Origin: Mobula hypostoma
Taxonomy: Eukaryota
DNA: 64,000 nt
Direction: 5' to 3'
Assembly: GCF_963921235.1 (NCBI RefSeq)
Contig: NC_086108.1
Location: 40,054,001 to 40,118,000, forward strand
Under the pieces are notes generated by a model, which searched no databases, was not told the origin of the DNA, and saw only the letters and a program-made list of their open reading frames with translations. This document shows, one piece after another, positions 2,020-55,132 of this stretch. A program made the translations under genes and the position numbers. The first letter of the stretch is position 1, and the number at the start of each line of letters is the position of its first letter.

Positions 2020-2310
2020 CTCCCAGTGCAAGAGATGGAGTGGACTGCCAGTGCCTTTTTCCCAGGGTGGAAGTGGCTAATACAAGAATGCGTGATTTTA
2101 AGGTGATGGGTGTACGTACAGAGGGATATCAGAGGAAGGTTTTCTTTCCATAGAGAGAGATGGGTGCACAGAGCTTGCTGCCAGGTTTGGCGGCAGAAGC
2201 ATTTAAAAGGTCCTTACTGTTGAAAAATACATGGATGCAAGAAAAATGAAGGTCCGTGTGAGATGGAAGGGTTAGATTAATCGTGGTGTAAGTTAATATG
2301 TTGGTACAAC
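2020..2310 (+). mobile_element. CR1 LINE 3' end, interrupted by the provirus and resuming at 7300-7345
   Basis: Encodes VDCQCLFPRVEVANTR...FKV, the CR1 ORF2 C-terminus. The tail ggtacaac|gttgtgggctgaagggcctgtact reassembles across the ERV. Confidence 0.8.
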
Positions 2311-2705
2311 TATAGTTGTGAAGGGTTAACATAGGGGTAGCCGCTGCAACCATGCTAGTTATCAATTGGTACATTTGAAGAACACTGCAGCCCTTCCATT
2401 GGCTGTTTATGGTGACACAGTACCGGCCCCTGGCAACAAAGTCACACTAGTATCTAAATGGAGCACGCATGGGGCTCGTCTCTCTCTTGCATCAGGGCCT
2501 CACTAACAGACAAGGGTCACAAATCGGTACTGCAGAAAGATTGGAAGTGCGTTGCAGATAGAGTGCCTGTGTGCACACTTGGATAAGTATCACTGTAACT
2601 TGAATGTTTTAGTGTGTGTCTTTATTTGGTTAATAAATAGTTAAAATACTGACCCATTGTTGATACCTTCTGTCCCGTTAACCAAATCCATGAATCCGTG
2701 CAACA
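2311..2705 (+). repeat. 5' LTR
   Basis: Starts tatagttgtgaagggttaac (TG mutated), ends gcaaca, has AATAAA near 2632 and aligns with 6905-7299. Confidence 0.88.
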
Positions 2706-2771
2706 GATTTGTAATGGAACAGAAGATTAAAGGTTTAAAAGTAGAGGTGAAAAAGAGAGCCCCGCTCCCAT

Positions 2772-4000
2772 GTGAAGAGTGCTCGGTCCCTGGGTGGACT
2801 GATAACAGTGCAGGATTCGAAGCCTCCTCAACCTACTGGTGAGCCACAGCACTCCAATGGACTGTTCAGACAAGCTGGAGCCCTGCAGAGTGAAAATGGG
2901 ACACTTGTGTCGATATGGAACAGGGTAGTGTTCTCAGATAGGAAAAGAAGTCAAAGGGAATCTTTCTGGCTGGTGATCATTGTAAAGCAACGGTGTGAGA
3001 CAATTTTATGGACAGAGCAGGAAATAGAAATCCTTAGAAATGAGGTGGAAGCATTGAATCAGCACCGTATCATCGTAGGGGAGGGTGTCCGTTCATCACA
3101 GGCCCGGGTTAAAGAACTGGAGGACATGGATACTGAGATAACCAGTCAGCTGGTAAAAGAGTGGCAGTTAGAGGCTGCCCGAAGTGCTAATGGGCAACCG
3201 GATGCTGTTAAGGTCCGAGCCTTGATGCTGCAGGGAGATGATCCTGACACGTGGATGTGGGATGGGAAGATCTGGCTCGATAGTGAGGATGGGGAAGAGA
3301 GAATAGAGGAGAGTCCTGTAAGAGGAAGTGGGATGGACAGTATAATGGGCTCCTGATTAAGGAACTGACAGAATTGAGGGATAGATATGGAGAAAAACTG
3401 GGGGGAGTATCTGGCCATGTGGCTATTGAGGATATGGGGTAGGGAGTATGCAGGGATGATTATTATAGTTAACCCTTCCTTCCTAAATGAGATTTAAAGT
3501 CCCAGGAGGAGAGGAGTGTGGTACAGGAAGGAACTAAAAGTTCGCCAGTGAGCTTTGATCACAGGGATATACGACAGAGATAACCCGCTGGAGGATCCTC
3601 ACTTATTGGGTCCTTCAAGACTGTAATGGAGCTGGAGGAATCGGGGGATAGATATTGACAAAAGACAGAGAACTGTGGCCATGGTGAGGAACCTGATTAA
3701 AACAGCAGCTCCCCATTTGAAAGGGTGGTGCTGCCCTCAATGGGACCAGTGATAGGAGATACTGTAAATGTAGCCGTCTGATCGCCGGAAGGATTAGAAG
3801 TTGTGGGAAAAGATGCCCATAGCAAAGTAAGTAGGCTGAACAAGCAGATGGGGGCGGTGGGGCAGTGGGGATTCCTGCTCGACCCATAAGGAAATGATTT
3901 TTAGTGCTGCCTAGGGCAGGGATCAAGCAGGGATCAGGTTGATTCCATTGCCACTCTCACCCTCTATGCGATGTGAAAGGAATATTGCCGGGGAGAGAAG
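2772..4000 (+). pseudogene. gag: ERV-L-type gag, frameshifted and with stops
   Basis: A coiled-coil segment precedes VKVRALMLQGDDPDTWMWDGKIWLDSE, resembling the ERV-L motif KVRALIGKEWDPxTWxGDVW. Next, across a frameshift, KELTELRDRYGEKLGEYLAMWLLRIW. A C-terminal RAGIK..DQVDSIATLTLYAM block lies near 3910-3975. Confidence 0.78.
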
Positions 4001-4269
4001 GGCAAAGAAACTGTTAAGGGAAGGGGATCATTCCCATAGGGGTCCCTTCTATCCCTCGCAGGTTCCTTATATCCTGCTCAGGGCTTTGTATATCCCTCAT
4101 TGGAGGATTTCCAAAAGGCTGTCGTTGACGTTCAGTGGCGGCATGGGTCAGGCGGTTGGTGGAGCCTGTCTGCCCCACTCCTGTAGGAATGGGGTCAGGG
4201 CTCTCAGCGGGTAGGCGCAGTGGCCTTTTCTCAGCTGGGAAGCCCATGGCCTTACATACCCAATGCAGT

Positions 4270-4405
4270 ACATCGGGGAAGGGTCGGGTGCAGCAACCAC
4301 ATGGGCCACCAGAGAGGGGGAGATAGTGGCAAATGGACCAGGGAATACGTGATGGTAGCGTTACTGGGGAAACAGGGAATGACACGTTTAAACATGCAGT
4401 GATTA
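4270..4405 (+). pseudogene. pol: Remnant of the pol (integrase) C-terminal tail
   Basis: VQQPHGPPERG(fs)EIVANGPGNT*W resembles the ERV-L pol end (VWV.PP...P...EV.A.G.GNT.WV). No protease, RT or RNase H motifs were seen upstream. Confidence 0.55.
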
Positions 4406-4429
4406 GCTAGATGGGAGTGAGAGTGTGTC

Positions 4430-6830
4430 TCCCTACATTGCAGAGTGACGACCTAATGGCAGCAGTGATGACGATGACCTGCTGCGTGAGCTCCTACATG
4501 TACTTGCAGGTGGCGTGCAAATATGCACATCGTACTACTGTTCCAGATTGCTGGATATGAATGACAACTCCATCTCATGCAGCGGAAGAGGTACCAATAA
4601 AACAATCACCTCCGTTGAAAAGGAAAACATGATTTGGAGGAACCTGCCTAGCTTCAGCTTTGGTATTCTGTTTCTAGGGAAGTGGGGAGGACTAGTCCAT
4701 TCCAATTAGACTCACCTCATAGTATGGCAACAGCCCTAAAGAACTTGAACCTTTGTAGCTCCCAGTGGAGTAAGTGATTTAAAGGCTGATATTTCCCAGC
4801 TTGTGATCTATCCAGTCCAAAGTTTCCAACTCTAAGAGTGATTCCCCAGCCAACAAGGAAGGGAAAGGAAGGTTGGTGTTGGCGCTATGATGAGCACAGG
4901 TCCAACCAGTCAGCAGGGTATGATGGGTATGAGCAAGAATGGTATCCTGGGACAACTGTGTCTATGCTGAATGGTGCTGTGAAGTTAGGCACTCCCTGGA
5001 CACTGGATGATACCTATTGTATATGCGGCTCCTAGGCTTACAGGTCTTATGGCTACCATTATCCAAGAAGTGAAGTGCTGAACGTGCATTGTTTTAGAGG
5101 CCTGGGCGAGCACCCTGTCCATGATGGTCGGCGTGGTAAGAGGCATATCACAGAGGTGGAAGGAGTTTGGATGCTAGTCTTTCCCCTCTGTGGTACGGCC
5201 AGGCTGTCCCAGGAAGCGATACATGGAAATGCTGGTCAATGAGATGACAATGGGGTTCAAGCAGGTGGAGGATGCGCTAACCCGGGTGTTGGCTGACATG
5301 GTAGCTTTTCAGGTGATCATGTTGCAGAATCGAAGGGGCTTAGATTATCTGCCTGCAGAAGGGACTGCCAGCTGTGTTGTTATTGGCTGAGAATGTTGCA
5401 CCTATATTGCTGACAAGTCAGGAAGCATTGCAAAAATGCCATCTCCTTCTCTCAATTCCTCCGTCTCCACTGCAACTGGTCTCAGGATGAGGCTTTCCAT
5501 TCCAGAACTAAGGAGGTGTCCTCTTTCTTCAAAGAAAAAGACTTTCCTTCCTGCACCATTAACGCTGCCCTCACCCGTATCTTTTCCATTTTGCGCCCGT
5601 CTGCCCTCACCCCATCCACCCACCACCCCACAAAGGATAGGGTTCTTCTTGTTCTCACCTACCAGCCTCCGCATCCAGCAAATAATTCTCCGTAACTTCT
5701 GCCACCTCCAACAGGATCCCACCACTAAGCACATCTTCCCCCTCTCCCCTCCCCGCAAATTTCACTCCTTAGGTGTCTCCCATTGTCCATTCGTCCCTCT
5801 CCACTGATCTCTCTCCTGGCACTTATCCTTGCAAGTAACAAATGCTGCACCTGCCCCTACATCTCCTGCCTCACTATCATTCAGGGCCCCAAACAGTCAG
5901 TCCAGGTGAGGCGACGCTTCACCTGTGAGTCTGTTGGGGTCATCCAGTGCTCCTGGCATGGTCTCCTGTATATTGGTGAGACCCGACGTAGATTGGAAAA
6001 CTGCTTTGTCGAACACGTACGCTCCATCTGCTAGAGAAAGCCGGATCTCCCGGTGACTACCTATTTCATTTCTGCTTCCCATTCTCATACCAACATGTCA
6101 GTCCATAGCCTCCTCTATTGCCGCGATGAGGCCACACTTAGTTTGGAGAGGCAACACCTTACCTTGCGTCTGGATAACCTCCAAACTGATGACATAAACA
6201 TCAATTTCTTGAACTTCTGGGAATTGTCCCCTCCTTCACCATTCCCCATTACTATTTCCCTCTCTCACCTTATCTCCTTACCTGCCTATCATCTCTCACT
6301 GGTGCTCCTCCCCTTTCGCTTTCTTCCATGGCCTTCAGTTGTCTCCTATCAGATTCCACCTTCGCCAGCCCTGTATCCCGTTCACCAAACGACTTCCCAG
6401 CTCTTTACTTCACCCCTCCCCCTCACCTATCACCTACTACCATGTACTTCCTGCTCCCTCCTCCACCTTCTTACTCTGACTTCTTATCTTTTTCCAGTCC
6501 TGATGAAGGGTCTTGGCCCAAAATGTCCTTTCCATAGGTGCTGCCTGGCCTGCTCAATTCCTCCAGAATTTTGTGTGTGTTACTTTGATTTCCAGATTCT
6601 ACAGATTATCTCTTGTTCGGGGAACATTTCTCACCAAGCTGACCATATCAATGGTTGGTGAATAAGATTAGGAAAATTGTGGACCAGTTCTGCTGCTTCT
6701 ATACCCTAGGGGGAAGCTGGTGGCCGTTTAGGGCACTGGGTGTTTGGTGGACTACTGTGATACACTGGATAGTGACTGTCAGCCTAATAGTGCTGGGTAT
6801 CGTTTGTATTTTTACGTCTTGTATGTAACA
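4430..6830 (+). pseudogene. env: Gamma-type env, split by a Penelope-like insertion at 5430-6616
   Basis: SU end TYCICGS*AY. Furin site RRGKR at 5129-5143. Immunosuppressive domain LQNRRGLDYL and CX6CC (CVVIG*ECC, 5373-5399). After the insertion come GNISHQADHI and the hydrophobic anchor WWTTVIHWIVTVSLIVLGIVCIF. The start is approximate. Confidence 0.88.
5430..6616 (+). mobile_element. Penelope-like element, 5'-truncated (GIY-YIG endonuclease, pyrimidine-rich 3' region, decayed hammerhead)
   Basis: FTCESVGVIQC..LLYIGETRRRLENCFVEH GIY-YIG motif. cagtcctgatgaagggtcttggcccaaaatgtc at 6495. Imperfect TSD tcaggaagcatt/tcggggaacatt. Confidence 0.85.
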
Positions 6831-6904
6831 TAGTGGAGCATCCACAGTGATCATACTAGCCTGCAGGCCGGGTGTCACAGTACTGTGTCTTTCGAGGGGT
6901 GGAT

Positions 6905-7299
6905 TGTGGTGTGAAGGGTTAACCCCATCTGTCAGTTGAAAGCCACTGCCACCGTGTTAGTTATCGACTGGTCTGTTTGAGGAGCACTTGCCACCCTTCC
7001 ATTGGCTGCTTCTAGCACTACGGTGTCAGCGTCTAGCATTAAAGTATCACCAGCATATACATATAACCCATGTGAGCTCCTCTTTCTCTTGATTCGGGGT
7101 CTCACTGACAGACTGGGGTCATGACCAGTGCCACACAAAGATGGAAATCTGCTGCAGATAGAGGGCCCGTGCGCACATTTAGATAAGATTCTGTGTAACT
7201 TGAATGTTATAGTGCGTGTTTTGTTTTGCTGATACATAGTTAAAATACTTACCCATAGTCAGTGTCTACTGTCCCAATTACCGAACCCGTGACGCAACA
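6905..7299 (+). repeat. 3' LTR
   Basis: TG...CA ends (tgtggtgtgaagggttaac...gcaaca). Shares the blocks cccttccattggctg, tgtaacttgaatgtt and atagttaaaatact with the 5' LTR. Confidence 0.9.
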
Positions 7300-8692
7300 A
7301 CAACGTTGTGGGCTGAAGGGCCTGTACTATTCCGTGTTCTGTGTTGGTGGCTTTGAAATATTGTCAATTTACATGCCTCTACCACTTCCGTTAGCAGCTC
7401 ATTCCATATTCAAATTTTGCACATTCAAAAAAAGGGAACGAAAGGAGATCATCTCCATCTGAATAGAAAACGTCAGAGGATGCAGCACAGGATGGAAAAC
7501 CATGAGATGTTGCGAACCCAGCTCCCGTCTTAGCACCACGCTTTAAAGCTAATGCCCACTGCTATTTGACAGTGTTGACAGACTTTAGTGATTGTCCATC
7601 CAGAGACACAGATGTCTCACTGTTTGCCTCTGAGGCACCCTGAATACTCTGCATTGTTACCGTTTCCTGCTTCTCCCCAATTCTGTCCTTTCTTTGCAAC
7701 TAGTGTGGTCACTTTATGCGCTGTCGGTAAATTTCAGTGGGAATGCCTGCTAATGGACCCCTCCCTTGGAGCAAATGCTTTTTGTGGAAGCCTTGAAACC
7801 GGGACAAGGTCCTTCAGCAGCTGTCAAGCTAATCCCCGGAGACTGGCAATCTAGTAAACTTCAAACACCAGTAGAATTGTAGCAACAGCCAGTAGAGATC
7901 AGTCAGCAACATGTCTGAAAGTAGTTGTGGATCAATTTCAGGAACACCGATGTGTGGTCCTTCCTGTTAACTGAACAAGTGTTCAAACAGGAGCGATTAA
8001 CAGAAAGGATTAGCTGCCATCCCTCATTCCAAAATGGCAATGTCGAACTCATTGTGTGCTTTGACTGACTGTGATCTGTCTATTCTGCATGTGCCCTTGT
8101 GCAAGAATTGATGTGAGGCCAGTGCAGCAAGTGCCAAAAATGTGTGTGTATGGGCACAACCGTGTTCAACTGGACTAGCAAGCACCTGAATTTTGCAGCT
8201 TGATTCTGTGGAAGTGCCAGCTGACAGCAATGCTCTTCTCTGGAACAGACACTTGTGCCTGGCTGTAATTGGCGGTGATGAGTGCCAAGCACCATCTTAT
8301 TAAGCAGTGCTTGTCAACCTGTGGTTAATGTGTGGGTTTAAAAGTCAATGGTTGGGATATGGGCACCCAGTGCAATCAGGCTGGCTCGCTGGTCAAAGGG
8401 ACAGTCTCTGGTCTGGAGTGCGAGGGGTTCCAGCTTCAGACCGGCACTTGCCTCACGATGTCTCATCCACATGCAAAATCCCTAACACCACCAGGACAAA
8501 CTGAGTTATTTTAGAGAAGCACACCGGGTCATGGGCACTATTCATATTTAGAGTGGGATGAACACCAAGCCAAAGGCTCCTGCACTCTGATTCTGGCTTG
8601 GTTGAGGCTGGGTTCATTTCAAAATAGTGACTGTGGGCATGTTTAATGGAGTCTGATTGCCAGATGGCATCTTGGTGAGGGCTCTCATGCAT

Positions 8693-8915
8693 TAACACAC
8701 ACAAAATGCTGAAGGAACTCAGCAGGTCAGGCAGCAAATATAGATGGAAATAAACAGTCAACGTTTTGGACGGAGACCCTTCATCAGGCCTCTCCATTGA
8801 GTCTCGGCCAAAAAACGTCAACTGTTCATTTCCCTTCATAGGAGGCTGCCTGATCTGCTGAGTTTCTCCAGCATTTCATGCGTGTTGCTCAAGATTTCTA
8901 TCATCTCCTGAATCT
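8693..8915. mobile_element. Inverted pair of Penelope-like 3' termini (foldback)
   Basis: acacaaaatgctgaaggaactcagcaggtcaggcagc...cccttcatcagg is followed by its reverse complement ...gctgcctgatctgctgagtttctccagcattt. Confidence 0.75.
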
Positions 8916-9354
8916 AGTGTATTAGCCAGAGAAACTAGATGCACTGTGCATATGTAGATCCTGCATCTAAGCTGACAGTTATGCGCAGTGTCAGTGTCGG
9001 TACTGATGGTCTGGACTGTGAAACTCAAGGAGGCTGTGTCTTCCGCTGTTTCCACTCTTGCAGGCTGAAGTTGGAATTCCCGGCCATTTGAAGAGAGTTT
9101 GCTGGAAGGGGCAGGATATGGCGAGGAAGGCAGGGGGGTGAATTCCTCTACTGCTTGTGGATTATGAATCAGGAGACAGAGTGTGGAAGAGGAGATGGTG
9201 GGCTGTGAGAAGGAGCACCGAGTGGACCTACCATCTTTCTCCATTGTTTTTGCCTGCTGTTAAAAAGGTCAAAAAATAAATCAGAAGTTAAATTTATTGT
9301 CATGTGCACAAGTGAAATGAAAAACTTACATAGTATCATATAAGCAACATTCAC

Positions 9355-9392
9355 CAGTCCTGACGAAGGGTCTCGGCCTGAAACGTCGACTG
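9355..9392 (+). ncRNA. Minimal type I hammerhead ribozyme
   Basis: CAGUC-CUGACGA-AGG(gucucgg)CCU-GAA-ACGU-C^GACUG: 5-bp stem I, intact core, stem II, palindromic ACGU stem III, predicted cleavage after 9387. Confidence 0.85.
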
Positions 9393-9454
9393 CACCTCTT
9401 CCTAGAGATGCTGCCTGGCCTGCTGAGTTCACCAGCAACTTTGATGTGTGTTGC
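9355..9454 (+). mobile_element. 100-bp Penelope-derived mini insertion starting at the hammerhead
   Basis: Near-identical to 18330-18430. TTCAC is duplicated at 9350-9354 and 9455-9459. Confidence 0.85.
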
Positions 9455-9579
9455 TTCACTAGAAAAACATAAGTTAAACATAAATCATACACCATTTTAA
9501 TACAAAGAACACAAACAGAATTTAAAAAATTGAAGTCTATTTTAGTGCAAATTAATCCAAATGAATGGTCAACACTTTG

Positions 9580-9708
9580 GGCTGGTGAAGGGACTCAGCT
9601 CGAAATGTCAACTGTTCATTTCCCTCCGTGGATGCTGCTTGACCTGCTGAGCTCCAACATTTTGTGTGTGTTGCTTCTCCAGCAGTAGTAGGCTTTCTTG
9701 TGTCTCCA
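9580..9708 (+). mobile_element. Older Penelope-like 3' terminus with decayed hammerhead
   Basis: ctggtgaagggactcagctcgaaatgtcaactg...gatgctgcttgacctgctgagc. Confidence 0.7.
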
Positions 9709-53185: not shown

Positions 53186-53222
<37 letters not shown>

Positions 53223-54661
53223 TCGTGTTTGTGAGAGAGAGAGAGAGGTGTGCGTGAGAGAGAGAGATCGTGTGTATGAGAGAGAGAGAGGTGTGCGTGA
53301 GAGAGAGAGATCGTGTGTATGAGAGAGAGAGATGGTGTGTGTGTGTGTGAGAGAGGTGTGTGTGTGAGAGAAAATGGTGTGTGAGAGAGCGAGATGCTGT
53401 CTGTGTGTATGTGAGAGAGATCGTGTGTGTGTGAGAGAGATCGTGTGTGTGAGAGAGAGATCATGTGTATGAGAGAGAGAGAGAAAAATGGTGAGTGTGT
53501 GTGTGTGAGAGAGATGGTGTGTGTGAGAGAGAGATGGTGAGAGAGAGAGAGAGAGAGAGATGGTGTGTGTGTGAGAGAGAGATGGTGAGAGAGAGAGATG
53601 CTGTGTGTGTGTGAGAGAGAGAGATCGTGTGTGTGAGAGAGATGTGTGTGAGAGAGATCGTGTGTATGTGTGAGAGAGAGAGAGAGAGATGGTGTGTGTG
53701 TGTGAGAGAGAGAGATGGTGTGTGTGTGTGAGAGAGAGAGAGATGGTGTGTGTGTGAGAGAGATGGTGTGTGTGTGTGTGAGAGAGAGAGGTGTGTGTGT
53801 GTGAGAGAGAGATGCTGTGTCTGTGTGTGTGTGTGTGAGAGAGAGAGAGATGGTGTGTGTGTGTGAGAGAGATGGTGTCTGCATGTGTATGAGAGAGAGA
53901 TGGTGTGTGTGAGAGAGATTGTGTGTGAGAGAGAGATGGTGTGTGCGTGTGTGAGAGAGAGATGGTGTGTGTGTGTGAGAGAGAGAGATGGTGTGTGTGT
54001 GTGAGAGAGAGAGAGATGGTGTGTGTGTGTGTGAGAGAGAGAGGTGTGTGTGTGTGAGAGAGAGATGCTGTGTCTGTGTGTGTGTGTGTGAGGGAGAGAG
54101 ATGGTGTGTGTGTGTGTGAGAGAGATGGTGTCTGCATGTGTATGAGAGAGAGATGGTGTGTGTGAGAGAGAGAGATCGTGTGTGTGAGAGAGATGTGTGT
54201 GAGAGAGATCGTGTGTATGTGTGAGAGAGAGAGAGATGGTGTGTGTGTGTGAGAGAGAGAGATGGTGTGTGTGTGTGAGAGAGAGAGAGATGGTGTGTGT
54301 GTGAGAGAGATGGTGTGTGTGTGTGTGAGAGAGAGAGGTGTGTGTGTGTGAGAGAGGGATGCTGTGTCTGTGTGTGTGTGTGTGAGAGAGAGAGAGATGG
54401 TGTGTGTGTGTGAGAGAGATGGTGTCTGCATGTGTATGAGAGAGAGATGGTGTGTGTGAGAGAGATTGTGTGTGAGAGAGAGATGGTGTGTGCGTGTGAG
54501 AGAGAGAGATGGTGTGTGTGTGAGAGAGAGAGAGATGGTGTGTGTGTGTGAGAGAGAGAGAGATGGTGTGTGTGTGAGAGAGATGGTGTGTGTGTGTGAG
54601 AGAGATGGTGTGTGTGTGTGAGAGAGAGAGGTGTGTGTGTGTGAGAGAGAGATGCTGTGTC

Positions 54662-54692
<31 letters not shown>

Positions 54693-55132
54693 TGGTGTGT
54701 GTGTGTGTGAGAGAGATGGTGTCTGCATGTGTATGAGAGAGAGATGGTGTGTGTGAGAGAGATTGTGTGTGAGAGAGAGATGGCGTGTGCGTGTGTGAGA
54801 GAGAGATGGCGTGTGCGTGTGTGAGAGAGAGATGGTGTGTGAGTGTGTGTGTGTGAGCGAGAGGGTTTGTGTGTTGTGTGTATGTGTGTAAGAGAGAGAA
54901 GAGGTGTGTGTGTGTCTGTGAGAGAGAGAAGAGGTGTGTGTGTGTCTGTGAGAGAGAGAAGAGGTGTGTGTCTGTGAGAGAGATGGTGTGTGTGTGTGAG
55001 AGAGAAAGGCGAGAAAGAGAGAGGTATGTGTGTGAGAGAGAGATGGTGTGTGTGTGTGGGTGTGTGTTTGTGTGTGTGAGAGAGAGAGATGGTGTGTGTG
55101 GGTGTGTGTGTGTGTGTATATGTGTGTGTGTG
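53186..55132. repeat. Compound (GT)n(GA)m satellite with higher-order repeats
   Basis: Units of about 20-30 bp of the form atg(gt)n(ga)m. Rare variant words recur at about 250-295 and about 550 bp spacing. Confidence 0.95.

Follow-up and report, generated by a model that had tools for sequence, protein, structure and literature searches.

An old, decayed class III provirus with a gamma-type envelope gene and a lost pol in the ray Mobula hypostoma, and the family around it

Endogenous retroviruses (ERVs) of class III have been found with envelope genes of another class. According to the accessible parts of the papers cited here and below, XtERV-S is a class III element with a class I envelope (PMC8278194; PMC10536682), and every credible class III Env found in the survey of PMC4724089 was of class I type. 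The same survey presents the MaLR elements (MLT, MST, THE1) as non-autonomous, class III-linked elements with long terminal repeats (LTRs). For recKoRV and the cattle D-type, trans-complementation by a helper and recombination with it have been described (PMC10924933). The pairing of class III with a gamma-type Env is already known (HERV-S, XtERV-S), as are parasites whose pol has been swapped (recKoRV, cattle D-type). Cartilaginous fish harbor snakehead- and epsilon-related lineages (PMC4422223; PMC4977317), ERVs with gamma-type Env have been reported from 6 of them in a study that calls a class III group of anamniotes snakehead-related (bioRxiv 10.1101/2021.11.23.469661), and clade Huo, class III included, infects all major vertebrate lineages (PMC6001957). 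We found no ERV-L-like family from rays or other cartilaginous fish in the literature, in a search that left out most subscription papers, supplements, Repbase, and Dfam. Here we analyze a window of 64,000 nucleotides of the Mobula hypostoma genome (contig NC_086108.1 of assembly GCF_963921235.1, positions 40,054,001 to 40,118,000), which holds at 2311-7299 a provirus with an LTR at each end, a gag, an env, and almost no pol.

We consider it quite probable that this copy is what remains of a provirus, now dead, from an old class III family of ERV-L/ERV-S-like type that carries a gamma-type env, that it lost about 2.9 kb of pol, likely through a single deletion at short homology, and that no examined copy shares its junction. 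An earlier reading of the letters alone (the original prediction) had called paired LTRs, a 5-bp target-site duplication, a polypurine tract, ERV-L-like gag motifs, and the loss of pol, and each of these is present. The two LTRs (5', 2311-2705; 3', 6905-7299; each 395 bp and, like all stranded features below, on the plus strand) are 75.7% identical over 383 aligned columns, with a Kimura two-parameter distance (K2P) of 0.30; the 3' LTR runs from TG to CA, and the 5' LTR begins with TA and ends with CA. The provirus is flanked by exact copies of ACAAC, a duplication without strand, at 2306-2310 and 7300-7304, and the polypurine tract lies just before the 3' LTR at 6894-6904, where other copies have a similar tract. 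A 970-residue stingray Pol probe found no pol match in the window copy, from which reverse transcriptase (RT) and RNase H are absent.

What is left of pol is its two extremes. About 95 bp of the protease start (4187-4282) follow the gag stop in frame and end before the catalytic motif, and they run into the C-terminal tail of integrase (4272-4402), which matches the pol end of pol-bearing copies and is the tail of about 130 bp that had been predicted. At the junction itself (4272-4282), some 11 nt resemble both parental ends. The original prediction rightly saw a deletion here, and it misplaced the junction to about 4000-4270; the protease start is retained. From the coordinates of a stingray Gag-Pol (P0035, RVP domain at residues 549-644), we estimate the missing part of pol at about 2.9 kb, or about 970 codons, and the parent was presumably a retrovirus of gag-pro-pol-env structure.

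To place this copy in its family, we searched the 3.48-Gb genome with the gag region, scoring the best 40 of 204 candidates, and obtained at least 52 matches at 65-87% identity (100% for the copy itself). We fetched 96 loci in total, selected by gag (39), RT (20), the junction (17), or a spacer described below (20). A query made from the window junction gave 18 matches, of which the window copy alone spans it; 16 of the others lie on the integrase side and one on the protease side, so that the junction is spanned by 0 of 17 non-self matches, and we saw it nowhere among the fetched loci. With the junction of another copy as a control, 7 of 39 non-self matches spanned it by at least 60 nt on each side, and the test can therefore see shared junctions. 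As no other copy examined has this junction, we read it as the result of a single, isolated deletion in a parent with pol, and the predicted non-autonomous family, for which a junction common to other copies had been proposed as the check, is not supported for the window copy. The non-autonomous idea does hold for two sister subfamilies with other junctions. The nearest copy in the trees of the gag C-terminal region and of the surface subunit (SU) is L126 (FastTree support 0.975 and 0.855), which retains more of protease and integrase and has other breakpoints. In L129, positions 6400-6690 hold another junction of gag to integrase tail, near that of the window copy and distinct from it.

A competing explanation assigns the window copy to a further pol-less subfamily, the third and a small one, which multiplied after the deletion and of which it is the sole detectable member. 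This is conceivable, as the family made at least two amplified pol-less forms, the deletion in the window copy leaves untouched the whole of gag with its stop as well as the likely env splice acceptor, and genome searches give lower bounds; we nevertheless think it unlikely, since the search that recovered the control junction seven times found that of the window copy in no other match or locus. Some features of the search weigh against a one-off deletion: the query for the control junction, at 321 nt, exceeded that for the window copy, at 221 nt, and the copies are 25-35% diverged and the best candidates alone were scored, so a small subfamily with the window junction may have escaped. The microhomology was likewise judged from diverged relatives, and the data appear to fit a deletion before integration as well as one after it. 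Two routes could have led to the deletion, a template jump while the RNA was being reverse-transcribed or end-joining repair of the integrated copy. Once the class III parent had entered the germ line, events of either sort would have given rise to many deleted copies, the present one included. Its primer site would have been lost and its env interrupted after integration, and neutral decay would have followed.

The deletion can also be seen in other organisms. A contig of organism B (2058-4866) bridges the junction with 72 differences in 2818 nt, a contig of organism D (2765-4861) does so with 155 differences in 2109 nt, and both carry further indels, some of them frameshifting. The deletion is therefore real, older than the splits from B and D, and was followed by decay. 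We give practically no weight to the idea that the missing pol is an assembly artefact, as these are single contigs from other studies that bridge the junction, and organism A, which may be the same source, has it too. The presence of the copy at the same place in three organisms might also suggest that the host kept the locus for an Fv1-like function of Gag or for a function of Env. Fv1 and the syncytins are precedents for such retention of Gag and Env, respectively. For this locus, however, we find retention scarcely credible, because stops and frame changes interrupt gag as well as env, a 1.2-kb insertion divides env, and the orthologues differ by frameshifting indels. The LTR divergence converts to about 68 million years at a mammalian rate and to about 680 million years at the shark rate assumed in PMC4422223; the latter is implausible, and our claim on age therefore stops at tens of millions of years or more. 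The window copy is ordinary debris, and the interest sits in the family that surrounds it.

The class of this family was examined through Gag and through the RT of relatives. The gag (2735-4186, start approximate) is broken by stops and frame changes, with a longest stop-free stretch of 201 codons and a terminal TAG (4184-4186) that is common to most aligned copies. In tblastn it matches P0001, a 1520-residue Gag-Pol of Hemitrygon akajei, at E 9e-20, and cluster-mates of P0001 named Fv1-like at E 1e-19, as expected from the predicted kinship with ERV-L/Fv1-type Gag; 5 of the 13 proteins in that cluster bear the name Fv1-like, which is an automatic NCBI annotation. Pfam returned no family for the window Gag or for two stingray Fv1-like proteins, none of 1900 longer-protein candidates matched the 201-residue gag frame at E 0.001, no meaningful match came from searching PDB sequences with a related Gag, and an Atlas search with a piece of gag reached an uninformative best score of 0.78. 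Several long stingray Gag-Pol proteins of a related lineage (P0001, P0035-P0046) stand in RefSeq as uncharacterised or Fv1-like.

RT-region trees, which rest on pol-bearing relatives and not on the window copy, place the family beside the ERV-L-type Pol of mouse, birds, amphibians, lungfish, and teleosts. After 10 of 72 rows shorter than 170 residues were dropped, the family was split from two gamma-type and two gypsy references with a FastTree support of 0.996 (62 rows) and an IQ-TREE ultrafast bootstrap (UFBoot) of 100 (25 of these 62 rows). The mouse ERV-L label comes from named cluster-mates of P0007, and the gamma label of the reference Pols is that of a Pfam domain whose meaning we take to be this. 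The RT region of 13 family rows has an identity of 28-44% with the mouse-cluster Pol P0007 and of 18-30% with gamma-type Pol. YIDD is present in 1 of 16 family rows, five more begin YID- or YIN-, and the rest are decayed or missing; the motif is found as well in the two gypsy rows and in one of the gamma-type rows. P0035 contains no dUTPase, and probes bearing one gave weak matches only, at integrase ends. A grouping of Gag or of a helper's RT with class I had been named as the outcome that would overturn the class III assignment; the relatives' RT lies apart from the gamma-type references, in trees without an epsilon reference. The assignment has two weak sides, namely that the order inside the ERV-L-like group is poorly supported (UFBoot 26-56) and that foamy, snakehead, and HERV-S references are likewise outside the trees. 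FastTree also joined the ray sequences into one clade sister to mouse ERV-L (0.971 and 0.957); IQ-TREE did not recover this clade, and we set it aside. A stingray supplies the closest Pol, and rays and sharks supply 4 of the 5 named Env matches. Together, the evidence supports a class III (ERV-L-like) gag-pol lineage with a gamma-type env in a probable cartilaginous fish, in agreement with the original prediction on class, on host, and on an enveloped class III lineage in chondrichthyans.

The env is found in two pieces. The SU and the ectodomain of the transmembrane subunit (TM) occupy 4444-5429 in a broken state, and the rest of TM with the membrane anchor occupies 6616-6830. The gene aligns end to end with a 421-residue Env-like protein of the sawfish Pristis pectinata (XP_051893589); it is collinear with it, the SU and TM pieces match at E 1e-26, and residues 358-408 align at 6658-6813. 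All the predicted env features are in place: a furin site (RGKR, 5132-5143), an immunosuppressive domain (ISD) from 5322, a CX6CC motif at 5373-5399 that is interrupted by a stop, and a membrane anchor at about 6750-6815. The CXXC position of SU (4549-4560) reads CWI-stop in the window copy and CWVC in relatives. ISD and CX6CC, the marks of a gamma-type Env, are both in this TM, which gives hits to Pfam TLV_coat (E 2.8e-6) and to syncytin-1 (E 8e-9).

One might suspect a patchwork made by recombination, with a class III gag next to the env of an unrelated class I provirus only here or only in pol-less copies, as the TM is class I-like and two mosaic copies exist (L068, L120) that carry part of the spacer described below, then an integrase end, seen at the DNA level, and env. 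We regard this as very unlikely. Four relatives (L044, L047, L122, L132) have pol followed by the same env as the window copy, a younger related lineage (L103, L104) also has pol and then a TLV_coat env, and the integrase tail and env are continuous across copies. This second, younger ERV-L-like lineage (L103, L104, L106-L110, L112, L113, L115) has a gamma-type env of its own, and all of its copies are interrupted. Three of them, on small unplaced contigs (L107, L108, and L109 on C123, C140, and C162), are near-identical, and at about 3800-4400 in element orientation they carry a tandem 27-codon unit that includes the RT catalytic motif, repeated about seven times in L108.

The family has a marked history of pol loss. 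The retroviral frames are interrupted in all 59 loci checked. Among the 39 loci selected by gag, 11 still contain pieces of pol, whose breakpoints vary between copies. In 19 of these 39 loci, pol is replaced by a shared spacer of about 680 nt, a piece of another repeat. Its left junction lies about 10 nt past the gag stop and is shared by 9 of 9 aligned copies; the right junction, shared by 8 of 8, precedes the likely env splice acceptor by about 50 nt. A genome search with the spacer gave 394 candidates; among the 40 fetched loci that contain it, 28 had gag and env, two gag only, and one env only, nine were copies of a longer unrelated repeat, and none had a pol match at E 1e-4. Pol-loss junctions shared among several loci are thus found in this subfamily. 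The nine longer copies are the likely donor of the spacer. This donor is an old interspersed repeat (L145, L148, L149, L151-L156, L163-L170) with 233 candidates at 70-78% identity and no Pfam or PDB match; judged by eye alone, it looks L1-like on the opposite strand, no tool having named it. The top probe matches were other long interspersed nuclear elements adjoining the repeat. A second shared deletion joins the end of gag to the integrase core in L042, L128, and L130 (one wrong-strand row was left out of the alignment), and six further places in the genome match across that junction.

The spacer copies appear to have moved together with pol-bearing ones. Among the 12 of 30 loci tried, window included, in which the LTRs could be paired, K2P is 0.23-0.28 in six spacer copies against 0.20-0.29 in five others. 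Each of the three supported SU clades also contains spacer copies next to pol-bearing ones, a pattern that suggests recombination between RNAs packaged together. We infer from the structure of the copies, the matching LTR ages, and the mosaic trees that the spacer subfamily was probably mobilised in trans by a helper. Other pol-less derivatives would have multiplied in the same burst, with shared junctions; having LTRs, primer site, and purine tract, their RNA was likely packaged with Pol from complete copies, and recombination between both may have followed.

Whether env was kept for its function in the spacer subfamily is less clear, and the evidence is mixed. No frameshifting indel is common to most spacer copies in the alignments of gag (51 and 35 rows) or SU (42 rows). 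In TM, an in-frame deletion of 123 nt removes the first heptad repeat and the ISD start in 5 of 7 spacer rows (the wrong-strand rows L133, L144, and L147 were left out), and a one-base homopolymer loss at the TM start affects 7 of 18 spacer copies and 4 of 22 other copies; part of the subfamily therefore multiplied with a dead env. In L129 the TM deletion is slightly larger than the shared one. A more ambitious reading, which we put forward tentatively and hold to be improbable as it stands, is that rays hosted a two-part class III system, in which a pol-less genome with complete, working gag and env around a captured repeat fragment would have formed enveloped particles of its own, depended on complete copies for Pol alone, outnumbered them, and later shed the function of env. 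It is entertained because each spacer junction falls a short way outside gag or the likely env splice acceptor, and because most spacer copies have no frameshift in common in gag or SU. Within this two-part reading, the host would have retained a descendant of this envelope lineage in the form of the sawfish env-like gene (XP_051893589). That protein (P0122) is uninterrupted and the sole member of its cluster, and similar single proteins occur in Hemitrygon and Heptranchias; either a young provirus or a gene retained by the host could account for it.

Two features of the window copy were overlooked in the original prediction. The first is the loss of the primer binding site, of which a remnant is left at 2706-2709; in comparison with other copies, about 17 nt are gone, most of a tRNA-Ser site. 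In relatives, this site is the complement of tRNA-Ser(AGA), and the complementary motif has 11 occurrences in the genome against none for a control motif, with tRNA-Ser(AGA) genes at 4 of 6 loci inspected. The second is a 1.2-kb secondary insertion (5430-6615), the end of a very abundant, GIY-YIG-like retroelement with a diverged duplication of about 12 nt, and because it splits env, the provirus proper measures about 3.8 kb. Other copies run straight across this place, and the repeat is present elsewhere in 22 of the 96 fetched loci. It has no Pfam match and has Atlas look-alikes at 0.92-0.94, with GIY-YIG on 10% of one cluster; we presume that it is likely of Penelope type. Several short copies of its 3' end lie on both strands at 8693-9667 of the window. 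The likely env splice acceptor (4430-4443), a pyrimidine run followed by CAG, is conserved across copies. The 5' LTR has 44 matches in its own genome. Far from the provirus, at 53197-55132, a degenerate GT/GA tandem repeat of about 2 kb with a 26-28-nt unit gives rise to spurious long open frames on the minus strand.

The original prediction likened the provirus to MaLRs for its loss of pol, with env kept, and both the loss and the env are seen. MaLRs are mammalian and are not known to carry env. Unlike them, the window copy has an env and gives no sign of copying after its deletion; the comparison is loose, and recKoRV and the cattle ERVK D-type are closer. The resemblance to XtERV-S of Xenopus tropicalis, in the accessible description of it, is extensive: a class III gag-pol with a gamma-type TM bearing ISD and CX6CC, a tRNA-Ser primer site (as in copies of the ray family), a 5-bp target duplication, a stop codon that separates gag from pol within a single frame, and internally deleted copies in the same genome (PMC8278194). 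XtERV-S also has YIDD, the motif seen in one row of the ray family. In contrast to the ray family, which is old and broken and in which no dUTPase was found, XtERV-S is intact and has a dUTPase, and the deleted Xenopus copies mostly keep nothing but the gag 5' end and the purine tract, while those of the ray keep gag and env (PMC8278194).

HERV-S/ERV-S, HERVL32, and HERVL66 share with the ray family a class III pol without dUTPase and a class I envelope, as far as they are described in PMC4724089. HERV-S/ERV-S is mammalian and the ray family is not, and they are likened by description, the RT trees containing no HERV-S. With ERV-L (MuERV-L, HERV-L) and Fv1, the family shares a Gag akin to Fv1-like-named proteins, a 5-bp duplication, and an RT closer to P0007. 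ERV-L is described as having a C-terminal dUTPase and no env (PMC8278194, PMC4724089), whereas the ray family has an env and no dUTPase that we found, so that neither strict mark of ERV-L (a dUTPase at the pol end; no env) is seen in it. The class III ERVs with gamma-type Env of fish and amphibians, including elephant shark lineage I, are presented as kin of snakehead virus and not as ERV-L-like in the accessible text (bioRxiv 10.1101/2021.11.23.469661; PMC4422223); we set them apart by this description, and some overlap may exist. With the ray family, the range of ERV-L/ERV-S-like retroviruses that carry a gamma-type envelope reaches beyond mammals and frogs to cartilaginous fish, a point of relevance to the question of whether the env-less ERV-L descends from an enveloped ancestor.

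The spacer subfamily, finally, is most like recKoRV with KoRV-A and the D-type with the C-type of cattle ERVK[2-1-LTR], in which the centre was swapped for a piece of an old retroelement and the gag and env flanks were kept (PMC10924933). As described there, recKoRV and the cattle D-type fall outside class III, are of recent origin, and contain no full-length genes (PMC10924933), while the junctions of the spacer subfamily lie just outside gag and env; the window copy holds no swapped piece. We believe that the spacer subfamily represents a class III case, from a fish, of a recKoRV-type pol-swap parasite that outnumbers its helper, with the stepwise later loss of env recorded in its copies.

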